A stretch of DNA of 32,000 bases, taken from the NCBI GenBank assembly GCA_003144275.1, contig NJBF01000028.1, positions 1 through 32,000 on the forward strand. The letters run 5' to 3'. A model generated the notes under the pieces. That model did not search any database, had not been told where the DNA came from, and saw only the letters and a list, made by a program, of their open reading frames with translations. Position 1 is the first letter of the stretch. Every line of letters starts with the position of its first letter. A program made the position numbers and the translations under genes. Source of the stretch: Candidatus Heimdallarchaeota archaeon B3_Heim (lineage in GTDB: Archaea; Asgardarchaeota; Heimdallarchaeia; Hodarchaeales; Hodarchaeaceae). This document shows, piece after piece, positions 1 to 13,234 of the stretch.

Positions 1-188
1 TAAATACCAATAGTGACGCTATAGAACAAGAAAATTAAAAAAATCAACAACTGCCCAAACCAATATACAGTATTTAGCTTATTGAGAGATCCTTTTTTCT
101 TGGAAGATTTTATTCTAGTGATATCTTCTTGATCTAAACCAACTGACTTGGCCAGAGAGTCAAATTTGGTGTCCTCTAATTCCCTCAC
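1..188 (-). CDS. Small membrane protein, paralog of 210..623; 3' end runs off the window (not in the ORF track)
   Basis: GTG at 188 preceded by AGAGGA. The frame is open for 62 codons to the edge: MRELEDTKFDSLAKSVGLDQEDITRIKSSKKKGSLNKLNTVYWFGQLLIFLIFLFYSVTIGI. It shares A-x2-VGL-x3-DI-x2-I-x3-KK-x3-L with the neighbouring ORF, followed by a hydrophobic helix. Confidence 0.8.
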   Translation of the reverse strand, partial: MRELEDTKFDSLAKSVGLDQEDITRIKSSKKKGSLNKLNTVYWFGQLLIFLIFLFYSVTIGI

Positions 189-209
189 GATCCTCTCATT
201 GTATTATTG

Positions 210-623
210 TTAATCATAAGAATAAACCCCATATTTCACTGGTGGACCCTCAGAAGGTGCAGAGGTAAAATTGAAAAGTTGTCCAGCAACATTGCCAATA
301 ATAAAACCAATGATAAAAACAAAAAGCGTAACAGTGATTAATCTAAGTAAGGATTTTCTTTTAACTAATTCCGAAAGAACAGAAAAATTACCAAAGAGGA
401 TAGTTGGTCCAAATGGATAATTACTATCTACATCTATTACTTTAATTGGAACTAGAGCATATCCAATCAAAAATGATGATACGCCGATGATCGATTCAAC
501 AAATAGAAATATAGAATTGGATAATTTTTTCCTTTTTTTAGCGTTCTGAATTGTATTAATATCACTAGCAGTCAAGCCAACCTTATCTGCGATTTTAAGA
601 ACATCAGAATCAGATTTGGTCAT
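210..623 (-). CDS. Small membrane protein with a C-terminal KYG motif; candidate radical-SAM (splicease) substrate/precursor
   Basis: 137 aa with a conserved N-terminal leader, KKRKK, 2-3 hydrophobic segments and tail SAPSEGPPVKYGVYSYD (KYG codons at 228..236). Divergent from the rSAM gene. Confidence 0.75.
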   Translation of the reverse strand: MTKSDSDVLKIADKVGLTASDINTIQNAKKRKKLSNSIFLFVESIIGVSSFLIGYALVPIKVIDVDSNYPFGPTILFGNFSVLSELVKRKSLLRLITVTLFVFIIGFIIGNVAGQLFNFTSAPSEGPPVKYGVYSYD

Positions 624-801
624 AAAATCAACCAGAGACGTTTTAATAGAACTCTTGTATTTAAATTTAATTCCATAAAGTAAGGATTACTCCTTAAATC
701 CTCTAATCTAATAGGAAGATGATTTATAAAATTATGCAGAAATGCAAACCTAGATCATTCAAGTATCAAATTAAAAACGAACTTGTCAAGTTCAAGGAGA
801 A

Positions 802-1821
802 ATGAAGCTGCAATCACTTGAATGTGCAGTGTGGGAAATAACACTAGGTTGTAATCTGAAATGTTCTCACTGCGGATCCTCTGCAGGAAAAAAACGGGAA
901 AATGAACTTACAACGCTTGAAAGTATTGAAATCTGTGAACAATTAGCCGATTTGAACTGTGCTAATGTTGCACTGATGGGAGGCGAACCTTTCTTAAAAA
1001 AAGGTTGGGAAAAGATTGCCCAATGTATAGTAGATCTAGGGATGAAATTAAATATCGTATCCAATGGATTCATACTAGACCAACACCTAGAAGAATTGAT
1101 TAGATTGCAACCAACAGTAGTAGGTATAAGTCTAGATGGATTACGAAAAACTCATGATGCAATACGAGGAATGAAGGGATCATTTGATCAGGTAGTAAAC
1201 GCCATAAATCTACTAAGAAAAAATAATATCCAAACAACTGTTATATCAACAGTTAGCAAAATTAATTTTGAAGAACTTTCTAAAATACAGAAGTTCATAT
1301 TTAACAAGGGAATAAATTGGCAAATTCAGATAGCAGCTCCATTTGGAAATTTTACAAAGGAAGACATGCTTTCTTATGAAGAATTTTATGCAGTAGGCTT
1401 ATTGATAGCTGCATGGAGAGCAAAACATCATTTTCAAAATATGCCAGTAATAGGAGCCCATTGCATGGGGTACCACTCAGAAATCATGGAGAATTTTGTC
1501 TGGGATGGCTGTACAGCGGGAAGAACAACAATTGGGATTACTTGTGAAGGAAATGTAGTAGGCTGTTTAGCAATGGGAAATGATCGACTAATTGAAGGAA
1601 ATCTTCGTGAACAGAGTTTAGAAGCAATATGGAATAACAGAGATGCATTTTCCTATAATAGAAAGTTTTCAAGTAAAAAATTGGGAGATTACTGTACGAA
1701 CTGTGAGTTTGGAGAAAACTGTAAGGGAGGATGTAATTCCATGTCGTTAAGTACAACAAATAAATTCCATAATGATCCATTTTGCTTTCATAGAATTGAA
1801 AGAGAGATCATCAAGAAGTAA
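802..1821 (+). CDS. Radical SAM/SPASM peptide-modifying enzyme, splicease-like (resembles the Y_X(10)_GDL-associated/PlpX group)
   Basis: VWEITLGCNLKCSHCGSSAG (CxxxCxxC), GGEPFL, SLDG, WQIQIAAPFGN. SPASM cysteines: GCTAG..GC, CTNCEFGENCKGGC, NDPFCFHR. rSAM/SPASM is certain; the subfamily is recalled from motifs. Confidence 0.9.
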   Translation: MKLQSLECAVWEITLGCNLKCSHCGSSAGKKRENELTTLESIEICEQLADLNCANVALMGGEPFLKKGWEKIAQCIVDLGMKLNIVSNGFILDQHLEELIRLQPTVVGISLDGLRKTHDAIRGMKGSFDQVVNAINLLRKNNIQTTVISTVSKINFEELSKIQKFIFNKGINWQIQIAAPFGNFTKEDMLSYEEFYAVGLLIAAWRAKHHFQNMPVIGAHCMGYHSEIMENFVWDGCTAGRTTIGITCEGNVVGCLAMGNDRLIEGNLREQSLEAIWNNRDAFSYNRKFSSKKLGDYCTNCEFGENCKGGCNSMSLSTTNKFHNDPFCFHRIEREIIKK

Positions 1822-1835
1822 AGGTATGCCGACAG

Positions 1836-3152
1836 ATGAGTAATGAAAAAATCATCAATAAAATTAACTTACATGTAGGGTGTGGAGAAAATTATTATCC
1901 AGAATACCTAAATATAGACATCAATGAAAAATCAATAGCTGACATAATTGCTCATGCCATTTGCCTGCCAATAAAGGAAGAGAGTATCGTTTCAATAAAA
2001 GCATACCATGTGATAGAGCATTTTGATTGGGTAGACATACATTTTTTACTCAATGAGTGGTATAGAGTATTGATAAGGGGTGGAGAAGTAACCATAGAAG
2101 TACCCGATATAGAAAAGGGGATAAAAGAACTAAAAAGAAAGAAAACGTTAAAAGAGCAAGTAAAAAGCATTCAATGGATGTTTGGAATAGATACCCCAGG
2201 AATGCAGCATAAATCAGGAACCGCCTTTGAAGTAATCAGGAATATACTACACGAATTAGGGTATGAAAATATCACGAGAAAAAAACCAAAAACCCATTTA
2301 TATGGGGAAGGATTGAGAATGAGTTGTAATAAACCAGAGGGAGAGAGTCTAGAAAAAATAACAAGTAAAAGCAGCTATAGGACTAGAGTTTACAAATATC
2401 TGTCAGCTAATCCCTCAACAGAAAAGACTCTTTTAGAATTAAATCATTTGAACAAAATTTATGAGATGTTAGGATCTTTAGATAAGATAATAGAGGAAAA
2501 ACAACAAATAGATACAATTCTGGATTTAACAATAGCTAATCCAACCTTGGCACTAGAACTACTAGATGTATTAACAGAAGAAGACATTACAACTTCGGTA
2601 ACAAGTAAAAAATGTAAAGATTTACTAAAATATCTAGAGAAAATATCATTTCAAAAGAAAATAATCACCTTATGGAAAAAAAGACGAAAAACCCCAGGAA
2701 AATTCAATGAGGAGTTTCATCGATTCATTCAAGAAATCAAAATTAAATTATTTAGTAGTTTACGGAATAGCAATAGTATTGAGAAAAATTTCTCTTATTT
2801 ATCGAAATTAGAAGACGGAAATCTGCTCTTTTTTGATAAATACTTCATCTTACACAATGCGATGGTAAATTTCAACTTAGGCCTACGCTATTTTTACAGA
2901 GAGGAGTACACCAAAGCTTTAAACACCTTGCAAGAGAGTTTGCGATATTGTAAGGACAATTTTCTAGTGTACTGGAATATAGCAAGACTACTAGCTCTAA
3001 GAGATGATACTCAAGTAGAACAGTATTATAAAACTGCATATGATTTAATACAAGATAAAAACAGGAAAATAACCCTAAAGAAGGAAATGAAAGAGGTTGT
3101 AGTGGAGAAGAATGATTTAGAGTATAGAAACCCATATTCGATAACTGATTAG
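1836..3152 (+). CDS. Class I SAM-dependent methyltransferase domain fused to a helical/TPR-like C-terminus
   Basis: LHVGCGENYYPEYLNIDI, LPIKEESI, HVIEHF and LIRGG motifs. C-terminal TPR-like helices (FNLGLRYFYREEYTKALNTLQESL...YWNIARL). Starts 14 bp after the rSAM stop. Confidence 0.8.
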   Translation: MSNEKIINKINLHVGCGENYYPEYLNIDINEKSIADIIAHAICLPIKEESIVSIKAYHVIEHFDWVDIHFLLNEWYRVLIRGGEVTIEVPDIEKGIKELKRKKTLKEQVKSIQWMFGIDTPGMQHKSGTAFEVIRNILHELGYENITRKKPKTHLYGEGLRMSCNKPEGESLEKITSKSSYRTRVYKYLSANPSTEKTLLELNHLNKIYEMLGSLDKIIEEKQQIDTILDLTIANPTLALELLDVLTEEDITTSVTSKKCKDLLKYLEKISFQKKIITLWKKRRKTPGKFNEEFHRFIQEIKIKLFSSLRNSNSIEKNFSYLSKLEDGNLLFFDKYFILHNAMVNFNLGLRYFYREEYTKALNTLQESLRYCKDNFLVYWNIARLLALRDDTQVEQYYKTAYDLIQDKNRKITLKKEMKEVVVEKNDLEYRNPYSITD

Positions 3153-3343: not shown

Positions 3344-5608
3344 TTGGATCAGTTTCTCCTTTTTCTAAATGATTTTCATGAGCAAATAAAGCCTCTCGCA
3401 ATCAGGCCTAAGAAGCAGAATCCGAGGTCAGAATCGCGAATGGTCGATGTGCCAAAAGTCTTTTATTTTAAGCATATCCCATTAAACGTCGATAAAAAAA
3501 GTATCAAGGTCTTCCTCCACTCCAAAGATACTTTTTCATTGGAATACAGTATTTTTGAACCGAAAACGGTGCATGTGACTATGGCGCCTGTCTGTGGCCG
3601 TTGGTTTCGGCAAAAAAAGACCGACCGAGCCTTGGCCTCCATTCAGCAATTTGCCTCCACTATGGGCTTACATTCTGATTTTCATCAATTCAAACCTTCA
3701 CCGATTCATCGGCTCCTGAAAATGTTCCGTCCTTCCTTTCATTTATATGCCGATGATCCCACCAGTCCCAGTTTTTCCTCGGGTGGAATCTTAGCAGTTA
3801 CAGGGGATAAAGCACCGCCTTTGACAAGTGTGGAGAACTTCATTGATGATTTATTAGAAATTCTTACAGATTTTCCGACCTTTGCGTTGGTGCAACTGGT
3901 TTTCAAACCGATAGGTATTCCTCGGAAATTTCGCTTAGATGAGGAAGGCCAAGAGCGGCAAAAAACCCAGCTACGTTTTGATATTCAACAGGGCCAAGTC
4001 CAGCAACGGTTTACCTCGTCGATTAGTACAATTATGGAGGAAGCGGGGTGTTTTCATTTCTCACCGAGGGTGTTGATTGTCGAAACCAATCCTGACACGT
4101 TAAAAACCAAACTCAATCGAATCTCAGCATTATTTCGTTCGCATGGTTTGAAAGTACGGAAATATCCCTCTTTCTGGCGTCGTTTTCGGTCATTTATGGC
4201 TCAATGTCAATCCCATAAACTCGCTTCACCCATTGTATTGGATGGATATTCCCTTATGGGGTTTATTTCTCCTCCCAAACGTCAATTTGCCAGTGTGGGC
4301 TATTCTTTGGTGCCTCATAAAGAGGACTATCTTCTTTCCTCAGGGATCGATCGACATTCGGATCCCTCTGCGATTAATGTCGGGATTCCGATTATTAGTG
4401 GGCGTACTGTTGATGATCCGCTATTGATTCGTGGTCAGGACTTCAATCGGCATATGGCTGTCTTCGGTATGACGGGTGAGGGGAAAAGTCGTTTTATCTA
4501 TGGTCTCATTGCTGAATTTTATCGTCAGCAGGTGAAGTTTGTCATTTTTGATCCCAAAGGGGAATATCTTCATCCTGTGCGGTCATTTTGTCAAGATGTC
4601 ATCTATCTTAAACCGGGTTCGCAGGATCTTCCCTGGGGCATTAACATTTTTCACATTCCTCGGAATGCCTCGGGGGACTTTCTCATTCCTCTCGAAGACC
4701 ATATTCAATTTATCATGTCCCTTCTTGAACATATCTTTGATGAATCAGATGCTTTATCCCCTCAAATGCGTCGCTTATTGCATCTCGCGATTATTCAGAC
4801 TGTCAAGGAACAGGGTGATTTTCGTCGTTTCCTGTACTGGCTTGACAATCCTGGGCAACTCGGCATTAAGGGCAGTTATCTTGAAAATACGGCTGCAGGC
4901 ATTCTTAATCGGATCGAGAAACTTTTCTTTGGGAATACGGGCCGCTGCTTTACTGTCTCGCAGACCACCTTTGAAATTGCCTCGTTACTCGACCAGAATG
5001 CCATTATTGATCTATCTGCCTTTGAAGTCATGGAGGACCGATCGGGGCGACAAATGTTTCTGGAGGTCATCTTTCAGTATCTGTATTATTTTGCCCGAAG
5101 TTTTCGTCCTCCCTTTAAAGAAGAAGGTCTGCCTCAGAATATTTTTATCTTGGATGAAATTCAGAAGATTCTCACTCCCCAGAAATCCCGTTTTAAAGCC
5201 TCTGAGTCGATTATTAGTAAAGGTCCCTGGACCTTACGCTCGTATGATATTTCTATGATTTTCATTGGTACCGATCCTGTCATTGATCAACCCATTCTCA
5301 CCAATATGGGTATTTTTTCCATCTTTTATTCCAAATACGACCCCTATGCCATTGCTACCTTGCTTGGTATTCCCAAAACTGATTACGAACAGCTTCGTAC
5401 GCTCTTGAAGGTCAATCCTGATACACGCAATTGCTTGATCTCGGTCAATGCGCAGCTGTCGTTATTACGGACGAATGAGTTTCCTTTGGACTTATCTGCT
5501 CCTTTTGATCTTTCTGCTCTTCAAGCTCTCCCCCGTCAACGACAACTGCAGGAATCCTACGCAAAGTATGCCTTTGACCCCATTGATGAAATTATTTCAC
5601 AGAACTAA
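3344..5608 (+). CDS. HerA/FtsK/VirB4-superfamily P-loop ATPase (DUF87-like) with an uncharacterised N-terminal region
   Basis: RHMAVFGMTGEGKS (Walker A), VIFDPKGEY, IFILDEIQK (Walker B), LRSY (Arg-finger region). TTG start. Confidence 0.85.
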   Translation: MDQFLLFLNDFHEQIKPLAIRPKKQNPRSESRMVDVPKVFYFKHIPLNVDKKSIKVFLHSKDTFSLEYSIFEPKTVHVTMAPVCGRWFRQKKTDRALASIQQFASTMGLHSDFHQFKPSPIHRLLKMFRPSFHLYADDPTSPSFSSGGILAVTGDKAPPLTSVENFIDDLLEILTDFPTFALVQLVFKPIGIPRKFRLDEEGQERQKTQLRFDIQQGQVQQRFTSSISTIMEEAGCFHFSPRVLIVETNPDTLKTKLNRISALFRSHGLKVRKYPSFWRRFRSFMAQCQSHKLASPIVLDGYSLMGFISPPKRQFASVGYSLVPHKEDYLLSSGIDRHSDPSAINVGIPIISGRTVDDPLLIRGQDFNRHMAVFGMTGEGKSRFIYGLIAEFYRQQVKFVIFDPKGEYLHPVRSFCQDVIYLKPGSQDLPWGINIFHIPRNASGDFLIPLEDHIQFIMSLLEHIFDESDALSPQMRRLLHLAIIQTVKEQGDFRRFLYWLDNPGQLGIKGSYLENTAAGILNRIEKLFFGNTGRCFTVSQTTFEIASLLDQNAIIDLSAFEVMEDRSGRQMFLEVIFQYLYYFARSFRPPFKEEGLPQNIFILDEIQKILTPQKSRFKASESIISKGPWTLRSYDISMIFIGTDPVIDQPILTNMGIFSIFYSKYDPYAIATLLGIPKTDYEQLRTLLKVNPDTRNCLISVNAQLSLLRTNEFPLDLSAPFDLSALQALPRQRQLQESYAKYAFDPIDEIISQN

Positions 5609-5803
5609 GGAATAATTCCGATCAAAATTAGTCTCCTTTTTTTTCTTATCTTGTTAAAAAACACCAGTAAATCTTCTTATTCTCTCTTTTGCTCTTTATT
5701 CTTCTTCTTCTGGTGTTTTATTCGTCAAAGGATAAAAATTCACTTTAAGAATTTTGTAAAATCTTCTCCATTCCTATAAATAATATTTATAAGTCTTATT
5801 TAT

Positions 5804-7222
5804 CTCGAATGATGAGTAAGTCACCATCGGGGAGTAATGACGGAGCTGACCCATAAGCATTTAACTTCTGAGCCAAATGTTTTTCTATGATAGCGAATCA
5901 AGAAATACACTCGTTAGAAAACGGACTCCGTCACTATCCCTCACGGACAGTCCAAGTTTTTAAAACTACCCATCTGACCCGTATTCTCAGAAAACACATT
6001 CACGAGACAGATGCCGACAAAAATCGGAAAGAATTTAGCTGCGAACAGTGGATTAAAGGTCTTTCCTTGATGCAGATTCAGAAATTCGAAGCGGTACGAC
6101 CCTTTGTGCGACAGCTAGAGCAAAATAGATCCTGGCAAGCTATTTGTGGTTATCAAGGAAACGTACCCACTCAAGGACAGTATTCCCGAAAAATTCTTGA
6201 TAAAAGGATTCAGGAGGTGTTAGTACGTACGTTTCAGACCTATCAACACTTAATTCCTTTGACACAAGGGAAATTACCCAATACTCCTTCAAGTGCTCAA
6301 TTTACTCTCCTTCAACAAGGTTATTATCCATTTCGGATAGATTGTACCAGTTTAAAGTTGTCTCCAGATCGGTATCCCTATGTCACATGGGGGTATGTTG
6401 CCAGTAAGAAACAGACCTTCCCTAGTGCGCGAATACACACAGTTCAGGAAGGAATCCACGGATTCATTGCTAATTACGGACCATCGGGAGGTCATGAACA
6501 CGAATCTCCCGTAGCTGAAGTACTATTGAATGAAACCGAAGAAATCAATAGTTGGTTGTCCGCAAATTCCATTATAGATCAACCACGACCATATATAATA
6601 TTTGATCGGGGATACTGGAAATTAGATCGTTTTCAAGATTTAGATACTCGTGGATGGGGGTGGAGTATTCCTTGGAAGAAACGAACTCTAATTGGAGTTC
6701 AAATGGAAATAATAAAGTTTCCTCAAGCTGAGAATAGCCCTTTGGAAATTCTGGTCTGGGGATCAAAAACAGAAAAACCATGGCGTCGTATTATTGGTAA
6801 GCTGGATTCATCCAACGATAGTTTTTGGAACGTACTTACCAATAATTTATCTCTACCTCCCTTAACGGTGCTTCAACTCCAAAAGGAACGCTGGGAGATC
6901 GAAACCTTGTTTCAATGGATTAAACAACACACCACAATTAAACGTCCATTGGGGAAATCTTGGATGAGTTTTGTCACCCATTGCTTGTTAGTAACTTTAT
7001 TACAAATCATCCTCTTTTATTATCTTCTCCTTCTCGGTTTTACTCGTTGGCAAGATCAGTTAACATCATTACTTGAAAATTTACGTTATTCGGACTTGGA
7101 ACCGTGGCCTAACTCTTACTTGATAGCGGAAAGGTTATTTTAAAGGTCAGGTGATAAAAATGTGATGAACTAATCCATTAGACTTAAAAAGGCCAGTGAA
7201 TTGAAGTTACTCATCGATCGAG
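5804..7222 (+). mobile_element. IS4-family insertion sequence (~1.42 kb)
   Basis: A transposase flanked by imperfect 16-bp inverted repeats: CTCGAATGATGAGTAA (5804-5819) and TTACTCATCGATCGAG (7207-7222), 14/16 match. No clear target-site duplication. Confidence 0.75.
5887..7143 (+). CDS. IS4-family DDE transposase
   Basis: RIDCT (D), IFDRGYW (D) and ERWEIETLFQWIKQ (E in the R-W-x-I-E-x2-F-x3-KQ signature); 418 aa, intact. Confidence 0.9.
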   Translation: MIANQEIHSLENGLRHYPSRTVQVFKTTHLTRILRKHIHETDADKNRKEFSCEQWIKGLSLMQIQKFEAVRPFVRQLEQNRSWQAICGYQGNVPTQGQYSRKILDKRIQEVLVRTFQTYQHLIPLTQGKLPNTPSSAQFTLLQQGYYPFRIDCTSLKLSPDRYPYVTWGYVASKKQTFPSARIHTVQEGIHGFIANYGPSGGHEHESPVAEVLLNETEEINSWLSANSIIDQPRPYIIFDRGYWKLDRFQDLDTRGWGWSIPWKKRTLIGVQMEIIKFPQAENSPLEILVWGSKTEKPWRRIIGKLDSSNDSFWNVLTNNLSLPPLTVLQLQKERWEIETLFQWIKQHTTIKRPLGKSWMSFVTHCLLVTLLQIILFYYLLLLGFTRWQDQLTSLLENLRYSDLEPWPNSYLIAERLF

Positions 7223-7417: not shown

Positions 7418-8821
7418 TTGTTATTTATTATCGATCAGAATGGTGTATCGCATACCATTCCTTTAGTAGATTTTCACACCCATATTGGGCGAGTAAAGAT
7501 AGCTACGACAAAAGGCTCTTCACAACGAATTAATCAACCTCAGGATATCTTGAATCTATACGCAAAACTACAGTATGAGTTAGTTGAAAGAATAAATAAG
7601 AAACCTGATCAATATTGGGTAACTCTCCCCAAGGTTGAAGAATTTGCCCAGCCACTCTTCCCATCAGTAAAAACCATATATTCTGTGAACGAAACAAAAA
7701 CAAGAGGCTGGTTAGTAGATAAAATTGTGACTTTTCCTTTCAATGACATCTTTCACACTCAAACACAGCCAAAATTCATTAAAAGTAATCGTTATGTTCG
7801 TCATCAAGTTCATACCTTCGATAATTGTTTTCGATTTACCCCGTTTTGTCGTGTTGATCCCACTGATTCTGAATCAGACCAAGAAGTCTTAGATTCTATT
7901 GAACAAGGAATGAATGGCCTTAAATTACATCCTCTTTCTCAGGGCTGGATTAAGGATATAGTATCTCCTGAAACAAAACAAATCTTGAATGAAGCAGGAG
8001 ATTTGAGGATTCCAGTTATATTCGATGTACCTAATAAAGGAGTTGCCGCTGATATTACAGAAATTACACAGGAAGCAAGAAATGAACAAGAAAATCCAGT
8101 TAATGTTGTATTGGGACATTCTGGATTTGATTATGATTCACCAGAAATTTTCGAATGTCTTGCTGAAGATGGAATGTATGCTGAAACTAGTGGTATGAGA
8201 GGTAAAGATGTAGAAATTTTCTTTGATAATTTAATTAAGTTAGTTCCTAACTGGGAGAATAAAATTGTCTTTGGAACCGATCACAATTATTTCAGCGTGC
8301 TTCAAGCTGCTGATATAATTACCTATTTATTCTCAAACACTTTTCTTAATCTATTAAATGAACAGGAGCAATCAGTAGATCCTATATGTGCGATTTCAAA
8401 CATTCTAGGGGGGAACGCACTAAATCTTATACCTATTTCTTGGAATACAATGGAGGGAAAAACTAAATCAAGAAAATATAGGATAAAATTAGGTGATTTC
8501 CAGAAAATCATCAAGAAATTCATTTCAAATAAAGGCAAATTTATCAAAATTGATCTGGGGGAGAATGTGAAGAGAAATCAGATTCTACAAATTATAACGT
8601 TCGGTGAGAAGGAAGCACGATTAACTTACTCTCTTCAAGAAATAGCTTCAGGGGAAGAGGTAATTTTAAGATCAATTACCCAAGAAATTCAAAAAGTGGA
8701 ATTCTCGTGTACAATGACTCCTCTACAGATCGAGAAGATCACAAAGCCAACGAGAGGGGATAAAAAGATTAAAGAAGAGAAGTTTAAAGAATTACTATTT
8801 GAGGGAACTTCCCAGGATTGA
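7418..8821 (+). CDS. Amidohydrolase-superfamily metallohydrolase (TIM barrel) with an extra C-terminal domain
   Basis: DFHTHIG (HxH), GLKLHP, VLGHSG and FGTDH metal-ligand motifs. The stop overlaps the next gene's TTG start. Confidence 0.85.
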   Translation: MLFIIDQNGVSHTIPLVDFHTHIGRVKIATTKGSSQRINQPQDILNLYAKLQYELVERINKKPDQYWVTLPKVEEFAQPLFPSVKTIYSVNETKTRGWLVDKIVTFPFNDIFHTQTQPKFIKSNRYVRHQVHTFDNCFRFTPFCRVDPTDSESDQEVLDSIEQGMNGLKLHPLSQGWIKDIVSPETKQILNEAGDLRIPVIFDVPNKGVAADITEITQEARNEQENPVNVVLGHSGFDYDSPEIFECLAEDGMYAETSGMRGKDVEIFFDNLIKLVPNWENKIVFGTDHNYFSVLQAADIITYLFSNTFLNLLNEQEQSVDPICAISNILGGNALNLIPISWNTMEGKTKSRKYRIKLGDFQKIIKKFISNKGKFIKIDLGENVKRNQILQIITFGEKEARLTYSLQEIASGEEVILRSITQEIQKVEFSCTMTPLQIEKITKPTRGDKKIKEEKFKELLFEGTSQD

Positions 8822-11800
8822 GTGATATGGTTTCAGGAAATTATATTATGGAAACACCGTTATTTTTCTCGCACGGTATTGAGATTGAAAACCATCTAGT
8901 TGCAGCTCAAACAGGTGAGGTCTTAGTGGGCAATGATCTTCTATCAACATGGGAAGACATATTTTCTAATGCTTTTGAGTATTTAAAGAAAATTAAAAAA
9001 GATAAAAAGACCCCGAGGATTATAGCAAAGAAAATTGTCAAAATAGAGCTGAAAGAAGAAACTAAACGTGAAAAAAGGCTTAGCTTCATCTTTGTACATT
9101 ATAAGCTTGGGAAAAAGACTATTAAAATAAATGTCTTTGGACCAGATCCGAATATCTCACAAATCACTTGGCTCTTGGAACTAGTAACTCCACCATGTGA
9201 GTATCTTGAAGAATTGTCATTTTGGATAGATACTCTTTACGCTGCAGCTTTACATGGTTTATCAAAAACAAAAACAAAATCTGCCCTTTTACCAATGGGA
9301 TTAAACCCGATGGAACAAAGAGTACGAAGTGGACTCACATGTGGAGAACACCATCATATAGGAATTCCATCTTTTATTCGAGCACCTGTATATAACATGC
9401 TCCGTAACTACATTCCCCACTTAATCGCATTAAGCTCCACTTCACCGTTTTTGAACCAAAATACAAGTAGTAAAGTTATTATTAAAGAAAAAAATGGTAA
9501 AAAACAAGTAATTAGTCGAGGTACTCATTCATTTCGACTGGCTAACAATACAGGTCAAATGGGGCCCAATATACCTCAATATTTGCCCATTATAGAGGAT
9601 ATGACTTCACGAGAAGATTTTGCACGATTAATAAAGAAAGTACCACCCGAAGACCGCATGATAGATCTTTTTCCCTATACAGATTATTCAACTATAGAGC
9701 TTAGGTTCTTTGATGCACAACCTTGGAAAGAAAATCGCTTAGCTATGGTATTACTTATACAGGCACTGGCCCAAAAAACAAAAACACTGATAAAGCAAAA
9801 GAACCCAGTTCCCACTGTATCATCTCAGAGTTTGTATAAAAATCGTCGAAAAGCTATTCAATTTGGTTTACTTGCTCAATTTACCAGAGATGAGACTTTA
9901 ACAGGGGAGTTTGCATGGTTCTACAATTATGATATCGAAAAAGGAGTTAAAGCATCTAAATTAATGCATTCAGTTTTAGCTTTACTAATCTACATCGAAG
10001 ATGAGTTACTTGAATTTAACTCAAACTACATCGACCAAGTCCTCTTACCTGTGTTAGGGTCGAAAAAATTTGCCCCTCCATTTTCTGTATGCGATTACCT
10101 TTTCAAACTCTATGCAGAAAAGAATCAAAAAGTACCTGAGTTTCTTAATGAACTATATTATAGCGAAAAACTTATTTATCCGCCCCAAGTGGCAGGTGAT
10201 TTTTCATCCTTTCTTGTTGAGAATCCTCCTGATTCCTTTTTGGAGGTAAATAAACAACAACAGAATTTAACCCAGCTCCTACAACAAGATATTGCAACTC
10301 GGGAAGTTTTCAAGAGCAGATCTGAATTAAAACCAAAAAAGCAGAAGAAAAAGAAACCTGTGGTAGCTAAAGAGAAAGTCATCAAAGATAAAACGAAAAA
10401 AATTCCTGCTACCACTCCTGAAAAACCTCTAACAAAGAAAAAAGCGCCGACTAAAAAGCAGCGGCCTCCTGAAACCCCAAAACCGAAAAAAATGGTTGAG
10501 GTAAAAACTCCAAGACAAAGAGAGAAAAAGAAACCAACCCCCGAAACAAAACCTATAGCAAAGCGAGAACCTATTCAGGTAATCTCTGCTTTCGATGAAA
10601 ACGAGGATCTGGAAATTTATTCCCCCATGATTGAGATTGAACCAAAATATCAGAAAATTAATTCCAAAATCGCAAATATCATGCGTACACGTCGTCAAGA
10701 AATCGAAGCTAAGCGGGTTGTGTTTTTCCAAGAACATCTGAAAGAGGAAGAGTCCGATTTCAAGCCATTTCCCAAAAAACAAACTGCTGTTTTTCCAGCT
10801 CTAATTTCTGGGCCCGAACTGTTCGGGTATATCGTACTCTCTTTTAGTGACATTAAAAAGGTCATGTACCAATTTCGGAATAATCCTATAACCTTGAAGT
10901 TTTATGATAATCAAACAAACAATATAATTAGTACACTAAGGACTTTTTTGGATATATCTCGAATTGAAAAGCACCAAACGGTACGAATTCCTTGTTCTAT
11001 TGACTTAGGGGAAATATACGGAAAACTAAAAATTCGAGTGGAAGCAATTACTTCAACAAATCATAGATTACTACCTAAGAAATTTGTCTTTGCAGTGGAA
11101 CGAAAAGACCAAATTAGTATTTCACCCAAAGAATTCTATATCACTAGTAATTTTGGAACTGTTGAGTGTGTGTACAAAGCAACTAACGACTCTAAGAAAG
11201 AAGAAAGAGGAGAACTAACGTTACTCTTAGCAACACAGTCGTCATCAACACCTATTGTAATTTATGAAGAAAAATTTAATCTAAAACCTCATGCATCTTT
11301 TGAATTAGCTCGAAGCATAGATTTATCTATAGATTATCAGCATAGCTCCTTTTATATTCTCGCTCGCGTCACAACGGGTCTTCTAAAGAAAAACCGATCT
11401 TTCAAGAGTATTCATGTCCCCGTTCTACGCGAAATTGTTGTTGATTGGTCATTTGTAACACGACCTGGGTCAAAAAATGACTTATGGCAAGGAGTAGAAC
11501 CAAAAACACATTACGCAGTTGATTTTGTTTTTCATTTCCTTCAATCATTGCCTCCTGTTGCCATCTCAATTTATGTCAACACATTTCCCCAAGGAGAAAC
11601 TAAGAAATTAACGTCTTTACGTTTAAAAAGGTACATAGATAAAGGTGATGAGTTTATTGCGCCACCTGTCAAATTTAAAACTCCTAAAAAATGTGGATAC
11701 TTAATCTTTGATGTTCAAATTCGTACAGAAAAGGGCATTCTTCCCATGCACCTAATATCCGAACCAATTGGAGTGTATAGTCTAACAACAAAAACTACTT

Positions 11801-11829
11801 TTGAAAAGAGGCGTGACTTGGATCTTTGA
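8818..11829 (+). CDS. GCS2/YbdK-type carboxylate-amine (glutamate-cysteine ligase family) domain + Lys/Pro-rich linker + beta-rich C-terminal domains
   Basis: SHGIEIENHLV, LLELVTPPC, CGEHHHIG, LIALSSTSPF and TIELRFFD match the GCS2 motifs. Low-complexity K/P/T linker around aa 500-590. The last ~350 aa show an alternating beta-strand pattern. Confidence 0.8.
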   Translation: MSDMVSGNYIMETPLFFSHGIEIENHLVAAQTGEVLVGNDLLSTWEDIFSNAFEYLKKIKKDKKTPRIIAKKIVKIELKEETKREKRLSFIFVHYKLGKKTIKINVFGPDPNISQITWLLELVTPPCEYLEELSFWIDTLYAAALHGLSKTKTKSALLPMGLNPMEQRVRSGLTCGEHHHIGIPSFIRAPVYNMLRNYIPHLIALSSTSPFLNQNTSSKVIIKEKNGKKQVISRGTHSFRLANNTGQMGPNIPQYLPIIEDMTSREDFARLIKKVPPEDRMIDLFPYTDYSTIELRFFDAQPWKENRLAMVLLIQALAQKTKTLIKQKNPVPTVSSQSLYKNRRKAIQFGLLAQFTRDETLTGEFAWFYNYDIEKGVKASKLMHSVLALLIYIEDELLEFNSNYIDQVLLPVLGSKKFAPPFSVCDYLFKLYAEKNQKVPEFLNELYYSEKLIYPPQVAGDFSSFLVENPPDSFLEVNKQQQNLTQLLQQDIATREVFKSRSELKPKKQKKKKPVVAKEKVIKDKTKKIPATTPEKPLTKKKAPTKKQRPPETPKPKKMVEVKTPRQREKKKPTPETKPIAKREPIQVISAFDENEDLEIYSPMIEIEPKYQKINSKIANIMRTRRQEIEAKRVVFFQEHLKEEESDFKPFPKKQTAVFPALISGPELFGYIVLSFSDIKKVMYQFRNNPITLKFYDNQTNNIISTLRTFLDISRIEKHQTVRIPCSIDLGEIYGKLKIRVEAITSTNHRLLPKKFVFAVERKDQISISPKEFYITSNFGTVECVYKATNDSKKEERGELTLLLATQSSSTPIVIYEEKFNLKPHASFELARSIDLSIDYQHSSFYILARVTTGLLKKNRSFKSIHVPVLREIVVDWSFVTRPGSKNDLWQGVEPKTHYAVDFVFHFLQSLPPVAISIYVNTFPQGETKKLTSLRLKRYIDKGDEFIAPPVKFKTPKKCGYLIFDVQIRTEKGILPMHLISEPIGVYSLTTKTTFEKRRDLDL

Positions 11830-11941
11830 ACAAAGATATCTAACATTCTTTTATCTCAAAGGATTTAATTTTTAAAGGGAATAACAATCTAGACTGAAAT
11901 AATAAAGAATAAACTTGACGTTCATACAAGGAGACAATAAG

Positions 11942-13234
11942 ATGACCAAAATATCGTTGAATGTTGTAAATGTAGGTAATATTGAAGGACGAGCGTACCT
12001 CCACACCCAAGATATAGAAAAACTGGCTATAAATGAATTTGATTATGTTAAAATGGTAACAGAATGGGAAGATTGGGGCGCAGTGCAAATTCTTTCTTCA
12101 GATGAAGTGGAACAGGGAACTATTGCTGTAGATGCTAGTGTACTATCATCAGCAAATATTTCCGATGGTGATGCTGTGGAAGTAGAACCGGTTAATAATG
12201 CTGCAGCAGGTATCAAATCAATTAAATTGGGTATAGAACCTCTTGCTGGTCAAGAAGTTGAAGAAGCCATTTTATGGATTGCTACAGAATTTGAACAGCT
12301 TTCTACTCTGCTCAAAAATCGACCTGTGTTCAACAATCTTCAAATTGCCTGGGAAGATTGTCCAATTGGCAATATTACGGTGAGATTCCTTGGAGCTGAT
12401 CCTCCAATTCCAGATGGTGATATAGGGATTGTAGATCCAACAGGTCGTGAAGTGGAGATAAACATAATTCCATTTACCGAAATGAGTTTCAATGCAGTAT
12501 TAGTTCTTGATGTATCAGGAAGTATGTCTAAAAAGGATATGAAGGTCAAAAATATCAGTGGTGCATTGGAAGGACTAAAAAAAGGATTAGATGAGTCAGA
12601 TGAACTTAACTTGTTCATTGAAAAATTCCAAGATGGTAAAAAAGTGTCTAGGGTCGATGCAGCGGCTATGGCTATTATGTTATTTATGTCACTAAAAATT
12701 GCCAAAGGGTGGGGAGAACAAATTCAGTTACTGACATTCTCTGGCGAAGTAGAGAGATATTCACTAGGAGACACAAATGTCATTTCTTGTGTGGGTGAGA
12801 CAAAAAAAGCGGGAATCGAAAGTATTATTGATCATGTTGTCCAAAAGACCTCAGAAAGTACTGGTTTAACATTTCTGAGTGGGGCGTTAGATCAAGCATA
12901 CAAAAGTATTGACAGTTTTGATGAAAACCCTACAATCCAGAAGAAAAATCCAACCATGATTATTGTTCTCACAGATGGAAACCCGAACAAAGGAAATGGA
13001 CTTGGAGTAAACCCCATTCCAATCGTAAAACAATATGTGGAGCAACATCCCGAAGTAGTCCTCTATGCGATCGGATTAGGAGAAGCAGATCGCTTAATGT
13101 TGCGAAAAATTGGTGAAATGGGTCGGGGTGGCTCATTGATGGCAGATGATTTGGAAACTCTGATTGATTTCTATGATTCATTGGCTCAAAACTTCCAGAT
13201 GGTCGTTAAAATGAAGAAAGAACCAGAGGAATAA
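11942..13234 (+). CDS. Cdc48/VAT N-domain (double-psi barrel + CDC48_2-like) fused to a von Willebrand A domain; no AAA module
   Basis: Start reassigned to ATG 11942 (AGGAGA at 11929-11934). GRAYLHTQDIEKLAINEFDYV..GTIAVDASVLSSANISDGDAVEVEP resembles CDC48_N; LKNRPV..VRFLGADP resembles CDC48_2. The VWA has MIDAS DVSGS, T and LTDG, plus LYAIGLG. Confidence 0.8.
   Translation: MTKISLNVVNVGNIEGRAYLHTQDIEKLAINEFDYVKMVTEWEDWGAVQILSSDEVEQGTIAVDASVLSSANISDGDAVEVEPVNNAAAGIKSIKLGIEPLAGQEVEEAILWIATEFEQLSTLLKNRPVFNNLQIAWEDCPIGNITVRFLGADPPIPDGDIGIVDPTGREVEINIIPFTEMSFNAVLVLDVSGSMSKKDMKVKNISGALEGLKKGLDESDELNLFIEKFQDGKKVSRVDAAAMAIMLFMSLKIAKGWGEQIQLLTFSGEVERYSLGDTNVISCVGETKKAGIESIIDHVVQKTSESTGLTFLSGALDQAYKSIDSFDENPTIQKKNPTMIIVLTDGNPNKGNGLGVNPIPIVKQYVEQHPEVVLYAIGLGEADRLMLRKIGEMGRGGSLMADDLETLIDFYDSLAQNFQMVVKMKKEPEE

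Follow-up and report, generated by a model that had tools for sequence, protein, structure and literature searches.

What does a radical S-adenosylmethionine (SAM) enzyme do to the small hydrophobic proteins that are encoded beside it? This question is raised by a locus at positions 1 to 3152 of a 32,000-nucleotide stretch (here called the window) of contig NJBF01000028.1 from Candidatus Heimdallarchaeota archaeon B3_Heim (GenBank assembly GCA_003144275.1). The window starts at the first base of the contig, which belongs to a 3.95-Mb metagenome-assembled genome (MAG) that is 94% complete. The best hits of this genome are Asgard, as an initial annotation made from the nucleotide sequence had supposed. 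The same annotation described a gene for a radical SAM/SPASM enzyme (rSAM) divergent from a gene for a 137-amino acid (aa) membrane protein, an arrangement that the open reading frames (ORFs) and Pfam matches confirm, and it suggested that the enzyme is a splicease. We find that the two genes belong with a third, which encodes a methyltransferase fused to a TPR-like domain (MT-TPR), and that together they form a conserved three-component maturation cassette with a constant gene set and a shared tyrosine motif. The small proteins are most likely substrates that rSAM, together with MT-TPR, modifies at an invariant tail tyrosine. Whether this modification would be the excision of tyramine, as in spliceases, is a question that we consider evenly poised.

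How constant is this set of genes? The rSAM family was found in 103 of the 400 Asgard genomes searched (about a quarter) and in 7 of 21 genomes of the same genus, and it is therefore an accessory family. Neighborhoods were counted in 40 Asgard loci that were extended. The MT-TPR fusion gene adjoins rSAM in 37 of them, and the remaining three are cut by contig ends just where MT-TPR is expected. The methyltransferase, which the initial annotation had regarded as an optional tailoring extra, is instead a constant partner. Essentially every locus carries one to seven tandem small genes, either beside rSAM or between rSAM and MT-TPR, and almost all of their products are hydrophobic. The three-part set is also present in MAGs labeled Chloroflexi (L082) and Thermoplasmatota (L083). 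In the genome of B3_Heim itself, all three parts are confined to the present locus. Our literature search found no description of this cassette.

The tails of the small proteins identify the likely target. The 137-aa protein has the C-terminus SEGPPVKYGVYSYD, in which the tail reads PPVKYGVYSYD. In an alignment of 24 homologous neighbors (mean column identity 26%), no row departs from Y131 or V133, and conservation of G132 is at least 90%. The conservation of x-Y-G in homologous neighbors, which had been put forward as a check on the splicease proposal, is thus seen in the clade of the 137-aa protein. The pattern Y[GSA][VILMF][YFW] occurs in the last 35 residues of 47 of 1357 ORFs (at least 50 aa, 41 loci), nearly all of which encode the adjacent small proteins; judged by these patterns, the tail motif is beyond chance. 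The small proteins also have an N-terminal motif in common, L..IG..LGL...E/D, through which an iterative profile unites 72 of them, drawn from 41 loci; the tail tyrosine motif is present in all 72 members. It comes in three flavors: x-Y-G-V-[YF] in the clade of the 137-aa protein, Y.PGT.Y[GA][ST]I.P[KR]DF in a second clade, and YP.G..YS[ST][VI]..[KN][DE]F in a third, whose members are proteins of 82–106 aa with one hydrophobic segment.

The positions around the invariant tyrosine are not equally constrained. The residue before it is hypervariable across the 72 members, most often L, R, M or K but also D, A and others. The lysine that the initial annotation assigned to this position is present in the 137-aa protein but varies widely among its paralogs. 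At the second position after the tyrosine, V is found in 40, S in 15 and T in 10 of the 72, the other 7 rows being mostly mis-parsed, A or I. As parsed, 5–38 residues follow the tyrosine, and the second aromatic residue of the first flavor is absent in the other clades. A second invariant motif, Y-P-[FY] (Y69-P70 of the 137-aa protein), is located in the loop that follows the first hydrophobic helix. The other two clades have a Y-P or Y-x-P only 4–6 residues before the target tyrosine (YP.G..YS and Y.PGT.YG), and the clade of the 137-aa protein thus gives the impression that an insertion of about 60 residues, with a hydrophobic helix among them, separates the two halves of one motif.

Soluble versions of the small proteins were also identified. 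At L043:7009-7407 (-), between the MT-TPR and rSAM genes, there are two Pro/Lys-rich proteins of 54 and 65 aa, which end in PPRYGVYKLD and PPSYGVYSRK and have neither a hydrophobic segment nor the N-terminal leader motif. The window itself holds a second precursor paralog, encoded at 3..188 (-), that the initial annotation had overlooked. Full-length orthologs of this protein in L037 and L038 have 152–155 aa and the ends ...YYGVFDAEDS... and ...RYSVFNTFD....

To which enzyme family does rSAM belong? Pfam assigns it Radical_SAM (88.8 bits) and SPASM (43 bits) domains, and the cysteines listed in Table 1 are invariant across 80 rSAM sequences, which gives the full radical SAM and SPASM cysteine set. 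Its motifs VWEITLGCNLKC (aa 10–21), WQIQ (aa 173–176) and NDPFCFHR (aa 324–331) had been noted earlier as resembling those of the splicease group. The resemblance is real, since VWEITLxCNLxCxHCGS, WQIQ and GN(D/N)P(F/Y)CxHR are common to rSAM and to true members of TIGR04103 and TIGR03913. The true members compared were a Nostoc TIGR04103 sequence and Azospirillum and Burkholderia TIGR03913 sequences, all from annotated plasmids; rSAM is 31–34% identical to them versus 27% identical to a TIGR04133 protein. The same two families provide the top NCBIfam models for rSAM, TIGR04103 (nif11-class maturase 3, PlpX type) with 205.7 bits and TIGR03913 (GDL-motif maturase) with 202.2 bits, followed by TIGR04133 with 139 bits. 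A grouping with the non-peptide SPASM enzymes AhbC/AhbD and NirJ, named in the initial annotation as the outcome that would speak against a splicease, is absent, and the splicease models score well above these.

Several other identities were considered and rejected. A heme-pathway enzyme is not indicated by scores of 128.7 bits for AhbD (cut-off 500), 116.1 bits for NirJ (cut-off 515) and 112.1 bits for AhbC (cut-off 650). For a mycofactocin-like enzyme, TIGR03962 (MftC) gave 121.1 bits against a cut-off of 265, and the position of the motif is also unlike; a PqqE-like enzyme was rejected on scores and motif position as well. A PDB sequence search with rSAM returned only the distant rSAM enzymes SkfB and two cytosylglucuronate decarboxylase chains, and an ESM Atlas feature search returned only generic rSAM/SPASM clusters.

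An exhaustive search of 1.84 billion representatives yielded 458 clusters with E values of at most 1e-30 to rSAM. When 20 representatives were sampled across this radiation, the best NCBIfam match was to the two splicease models, or there was none at a threshold of 1e-60. Some representatives, such as P0121 (731 aa) and P0160 (938 aa), are matched by the query in two stretches and so are tandem fusions of two rSAM/SPASM modules. As far as family models and the tree described below can tell, rSAM belongs to a large, mostly uncharacterized radiation whose only curated members are spliceases, and within it is a splicease relative in a distinct lineage of ~340-aa proteins, outside the characterized splicease clade.

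The neighborhoods of distant members of the radiation are informative. At L081:3270-3983 and L086:2385-5653, metagenomic rSAM relatives of ~350 aa lie beside Pro-rich proteins with 3–6 repeated x-Y-G motifs (one x-Y-S), and at the latter locus a PrmA/PRMT-like methyltransferase and a separate TPR gene flank rSAM, so that the same parts are present in unfused form. Of these two relatives, P0128 adjoins a protein of 237 aa whose Pro-rich half contains five xYG motifs and one xYS motif. The other, P0138, adjoins a protein of 113 aa in which MYGL, RYGL and KYGI occur, and its neighbors include the PrmA/PRMT-like methyltransferase and the unfused TPR protein. The neighborhood of P0133, with a 74-aa peptide containing V-Y-S and a TPR protein, is suggestive only. 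Judged by gene content, the association with xYG, and even that with methyltransferase and TPR partners, extends through the radiation to either side of the tree. We regard this span as the best argument for tyrosine as the target, and it lends plausibility to a shared chemistry.

How would the enzyme recognize its substrates? Prediction of the complex of rSAM with the precursor gave an ipSAE of 0.80 (0.82, 0.80 and 0.72 in three runs) versus 0.00 for the best of three controls; this mark is reached by 58 of 80 solved complexes and by 2 of 110 mismatched pairs. At least 93% of contacts are common to the runs, with a predicted local distance difference test (pLDDT) value of at least 61 for the partner. 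The confident interface places precursor residues 3–32 on rSAM residues 156–160, 193–208, 228–230 and 337–339, a region that holds the nearly invariant E193, Y196, F201, I202 and R206. The model thus supports binding, in which the N-terminal leader helix is predicted to dock on rSAM. Such docking would be analogous to that of the leader helix of RhaA and of the Y proteins, which bind and activate the splicease (PMC11414181). No experimental spliceotide-protein structure has been reported (PMC11414181), and recall of a solved structure is therefore unlikely to explain the ipSAE.

The partner enzyme, MT-TPR, is encoded by an ORF of 438 aa at 1836..3152 (+) that starts 14 bp 3' of the rSAM ORF. 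Pfam matches are to Methyltransf_11 (PF08241), with a weak score of 22.7 bits that lies above the cut-off of 21.2, and to TPR_11 and TPR_2. The AlphaFold2 (AF2) model (pLDDT 89.7) has a Rossmann methyltransferase domain at residues ~1–165 and 13 helices at residues 171–423. The SAM-binding residues G15, G17, N26 and D28 are invariant, as in a class I methyltransferase. A Foldseek search with this model retrieved class I methyltransferases only, the second-best being LahSB (PDB 6uak), a methyltransferase for peptides that are made ribosomally and then modified post-translationally (RiPPs), and it indicated no specific substrate class. LahSB and generic Methyltransf_11 enzymes share the class I fold and intact SAM-binding motifs with the methyltransferase domain, but the likeness is at the level of the fold (12–19% identity), and they have neither the 13-helix TPR-like fusion nor the constant pairing with a splicease-like rSAM. 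The TPR-like domain is presumed to be a peptide-binding or scaffolding part.

We propose that the small hydrophobic proteins would be substrates built like RiPP precursors, in which a leader helix precedes a membrane segment and a short disordered tail. After docking on the leader helix, rSAM would act on the invariant tyrosine of x-Y-G-V-[YF], here K-Y-G-V-Y. The likeliest chemistry is that of the closest characterized relatives of rSAM, the spliceases: a tyramine equivalent (C8H9NO, −135.07 Da) would be excised and the carbonyls of X and Tyr joined, which would give an α-keto-β-amino amide, here presumably derived from Lys130. MT-TPR would act alongside, either by methylating the product or substrate or by holding the peptide through its TPR domain. 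Since no conserved protease or exporter gene was found among the extended loci, the product probably remains a membrane-anchored protein. In its most far-reaching form, the proposal is that backbone splicing is applied by Asgard archaea, and by some other anaerobes, to small membrane proteins of their own, by leader-guided removal of tyramine that leaves a ketoamide tail and by subsequent processing by MT-TPR. It is a tentative proposal, and we would put its chances somewhat below even.

A number of observations weigh against splicing as the chemistry. Known spliceases act at X-Y-G. In the precursor family, G follows the tyrosine in about 43 of the 72 members; in about 29 its place is taken by S, N, A or D, or by T in one or two rows as parsed, and whole precursor clades use Y-S or Y-A. 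Glycine as a fixed part of the site, as the initial annotation had it, is therefore retained in the clade of the 137-aa protein but replaced in about 40% of the family. The scores of rSAM are far under the curated cut-offs of both splicease models (205.7 versus 725 bits for TIGR04103 and 202.2 versus 591.75 bits for TIGR03913), and it lacks the C-terminal extension of 70–150 aa of the true members. An IQ-TREE tree of 155 rows was built, which included the Nostoc, Azospirillum and Burkholderia sequences but neither of the experimentally tested enzymes PlpX and RhaX. In this tree TIGR04103 and TIGR03913 form a tight clade (support 100) within a larger one (support 96), which comprises 34 representatives with longer proteins and does not include the Asgard family. 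The Asgard family (support 99), with its ~340-aa proteins, falls in the opposite half, whose backbone is weakly supported. None of the 20 representatives sampled from the radiation reaches either splicease cut-off, so that most of the radiation is uncharacterized. In the literature searched, no methyltransferase partner is described for spliceotides. The complex model does not place the tyrosine tail in the active site with confidence, a result that we counted neither way. The splicease identity given in the initial annotation is thus supported insofar as the nearest curated families are splicease models, but rSAM reaches neither cut-off and branches apart from the true members, which makes it a relative of spliceases and a putative splicease at most.

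Could the cassette carry out some other reaction at the same tyrosine? One may think of a three-residue cyclophane or a C-C or C-O cross-link from the tyrosine to the +2 residue (Y-x-[V/T/S]), or of β-carbon functionalization or epimerization, followed by or coupled to methylation by the methyltransferase domain. We hold this to be rather unlikely, although the low scores and the position of the family outside the true splicease clade are in its favor. Only V, T or S is generally allowed at the +2 position while the +1 position varies among G, S, N, A and D, a pattern that suits a splice site no better than an omega-x-x cross-link motif. Many peptide cross-links are made by SPASM enzymes, the NCBIfam models of WgkB, DynA, SkfB and PqqE match rSAM at 87–111 bits, and the constant methyltransferase has no counterpart in described spliceotide systems. 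However, these rival families reach 90–120 bits as compared with ~205 for the splicease models, TIGR03913 substrates have exactly the motif x-Y-G-V, and xYG repeats occur beside distant rSAM members. The hypervariable residue before the tyrosine also resembles the situation in spliceotides, where that residue becomes the β-amino acid.

A further question is where the tail is located and what a modified tail would do. In the AF2 model of the precursor there are helices at residues 3–15, 19–57 and 89–121, a low-confidence loop at residues 58–88 that holds YPF, and a disordered tail at residues 122–137. Across the family of 72 members a net positive charge is found in the N-terminal region, in the middle loop and in the tail, and proteins of the short clade contain a single hydrophobic stretch of ~30 residues. 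A positive-inside analysis, in which all soluble segments were net basic, gave no consistent topology. The two confident helices of the model would put both ends of the precursor in the cytoplasm, with the enzymes, and the basic segments together with the single stretch of the short clade might point to a hairpin-like (monotopic) insertion with both ends cytoplasmic. The basic segments and the two helices give no support to the surface exposure of the tail that had been suggested earlier. Candidate roles of the product could be those of a protease inhibitor, a covalent anchor or a signaling tail.

The initial annotation favored the first of these roles, with a Lys-derived ketoamide warhead at the surface or membrane acting as a tethered inhibitor of serine or cysteine proteases. 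Characterized bacterial spliceotides do inhibit proteases, and their ketoamide is required for it (PMC11626197); for the product of the present cassette, protease inhibition would be an analogy. The residue that would occupy P1 varies among tandem paralogs (L, R, M, K, D, A and others), as a panel of specificities might, and a product with neither a conserved leader protease nor an exporter may stay anchored. We nevertheless consider a tethered inhibitor improbable, because it depends on the inferred splicing chemistry, the predicted topology gives no sign of exposure to the outside, and no protease gene is present among the conserved neighbors. Still less probable is that the small hydrophobic proteins, rather than being substrates, serve as membrane anchors or regulators and bring rSAM and the methyltransferase to the membrane to act on a lipid, a quinone or some other molecule bound there: the confident docking of the N-terminal helix but not of the tyrosine tail, the existence of rSAM proteins among archaeal lipid-modifying enzymes and the suitability of a methyltransferase for small-molecule tailoring would fit, but multi-copy, fast-diverging paralogs that retain a single invariant short motif are characteristic of precursors and not of anchors, the soluble proteins of L043 have no hydrophobic segment to serve as an anchor, soluble Pro-rich xYG-repeat proteins accompany distant relatives, and the nearest families are all peptide maturases.

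The features of the locus are collected in Table 1. The spacer between the divergent genes is presumed, from the gene arrangement, to be a divergent promoter region.

Table 1. Features of the proposed maturation cassette; positions are those of the window
Feature	Position	Strand	Details	Basis
5' part of second paralogous precursor gene, 62 aa	3..188	-	truncated by contig start; leader motif and first hydrophobic segment as in the 210..623 protein; E 6.3e-9 to precursor profile	
Candidate precursor/substrate, small hydrophobic protein, 137 aa	210..623	-	hydrophobic helices ~aa 37–65 and 90–117; N-terminal leader-like helix; invariant YPF loop motif (Y69, P70); disordered C-terminal tail	ORF, alignment, AF2
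Proposed modification site K130-Y131-G132-V133-Y134	222..236	-	six residues from the C-terminus	alignment conservation
Leader-like N-terminal motif, aa 3–32	528..617	-	consensus L..I...LG....D; predicted docking on rSAM	iterative hidden Markov model
Spacer of 178 bp separating divergent precursor and enzyme genes	624..801	.		ORF arrangement
Radical SAM/SPASM enzyme (rSAM), 339 aa	802..1821	+	CX3CX2C (C17, C21, C24); SPASM cysteines C237, C255, C298, C301, C307, C311, C328	
Class I SAM-dependent methyltransferase domain of MT-TPR, aa ~1–165	1836..2330	+	invariant GxG (G15, G17), N26, D28, D36, E61, H62	
Helical-repeat (TPR-like) domain of MT-TPR, aa ~171–423	2346..3152	+	13 helices and a short C-terminal tail	Pfam TPR_11, TPR_2; AF2

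Directly 3' of the cassette, window positions 3344-7143 encode a 754-aa HerA/FtsK-like ATPase (DUF87, TrwB_AAD_bind) and a DDE transposase (PF01609). The G+C content of this segment is 0.39–0.445 versus ~0.33 in the cassette, and the segment is probably a mobile insertion outside the module. It is followed at 7418-13234 by three large co-directional ORFs of 467 aa (no Pfam match), 1003 aa (a weak GCS2 stretch only) and 439 aa (CDC48_N and VWA), which may constitute an uncharacterized system.

How does the cassette compare with known systems that modify tyrosine by SPASM enzymes? The spliceotide systems (PlpX/PcpX with PlpY of type I, TIGR04103; the binary systems RhaX/RhaA, RcsX and RasX; and the GDL group TIGR03913 with DUF1842/DUF1843) share with it the rSAM/SPASM signature motifs and provide the best-scoring families. 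They likewise have adjacent, often multi-copy precursors with x-Y-G (x-Y-G-V in TIGR03913 substrates) and a variable residue before the tyrosine. For example, the Nif11 precursor next to the true TIGR04103 enzyme of Nostoc ends in ALYGLPPELF, and the DUF1842/DUF1843 proteins beside TIGR03913 enzymes carry [PM]YGV upstream of GDL. Docking of a leader-type helix on the enzyme, which has been reported for RhaA and PlpY, is predicted here. The differences are substantial. The cassette belongs to archaeal hosts and to the separate ~340-aa lineage without the C-terminal extension, and it includes no Y protein. Its substrates would be small hydrophobic membrane-type proteins, unlike the Nif11, NHLP or DUF1843 substrates of the spliceotide systems, its post-tyrosine glycine is often replaced by S, A, N or D, and it has an obligate methyltransferase-TPR partner.

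Mycofactocin is a second point of comparison. Its maturase MftC is a SPASM rSAM enzyme that acts on a tyrosine in a C-terminal G-V-Y context (MftA ends in Gly-Val-Tyr), and the tail of the 137-aa protein holds Y-G-V-Y. However, MftC needs its tyrosine at the extreme C-terminus, whereas the invariant tyrosine of the cassette is the first one and is followed by more residues, and the cassette has no MftB, MftD or MftE genes.

To our knowledge, no enzymes other than spliceases are known to excise a residue from a finished protein backbone and leave a reactive β-amino ketoamide. The literature searched presents them as bacterial enzymes with soluble peptides or proteins as substrates, although one report refers loosely to 'bacterial and archaeal genomes' (PMC11626197). 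If the splicing proposal is correct, the cassette would be the first archaeal case of backbone splicing, the first with membrane-protein substrates and the first coupled to a methyltransferase, and the variable residue before the tyrosine would give each paralog its own reactive warhead. The precursors of L043, soluble by nature, would be convenient substrates for experimental work. If the chemistry is different, the cassette would represent a new tyrosine-directed radical SAM reaction. A splicing lineage this widespread among archaea would carry backbone splicing into the prokaryotes most closely related to eukaryotes, and it would add both membrane-anchored substrates and a pathway of two enzymes in which the methyltransferase is a fixed partner.

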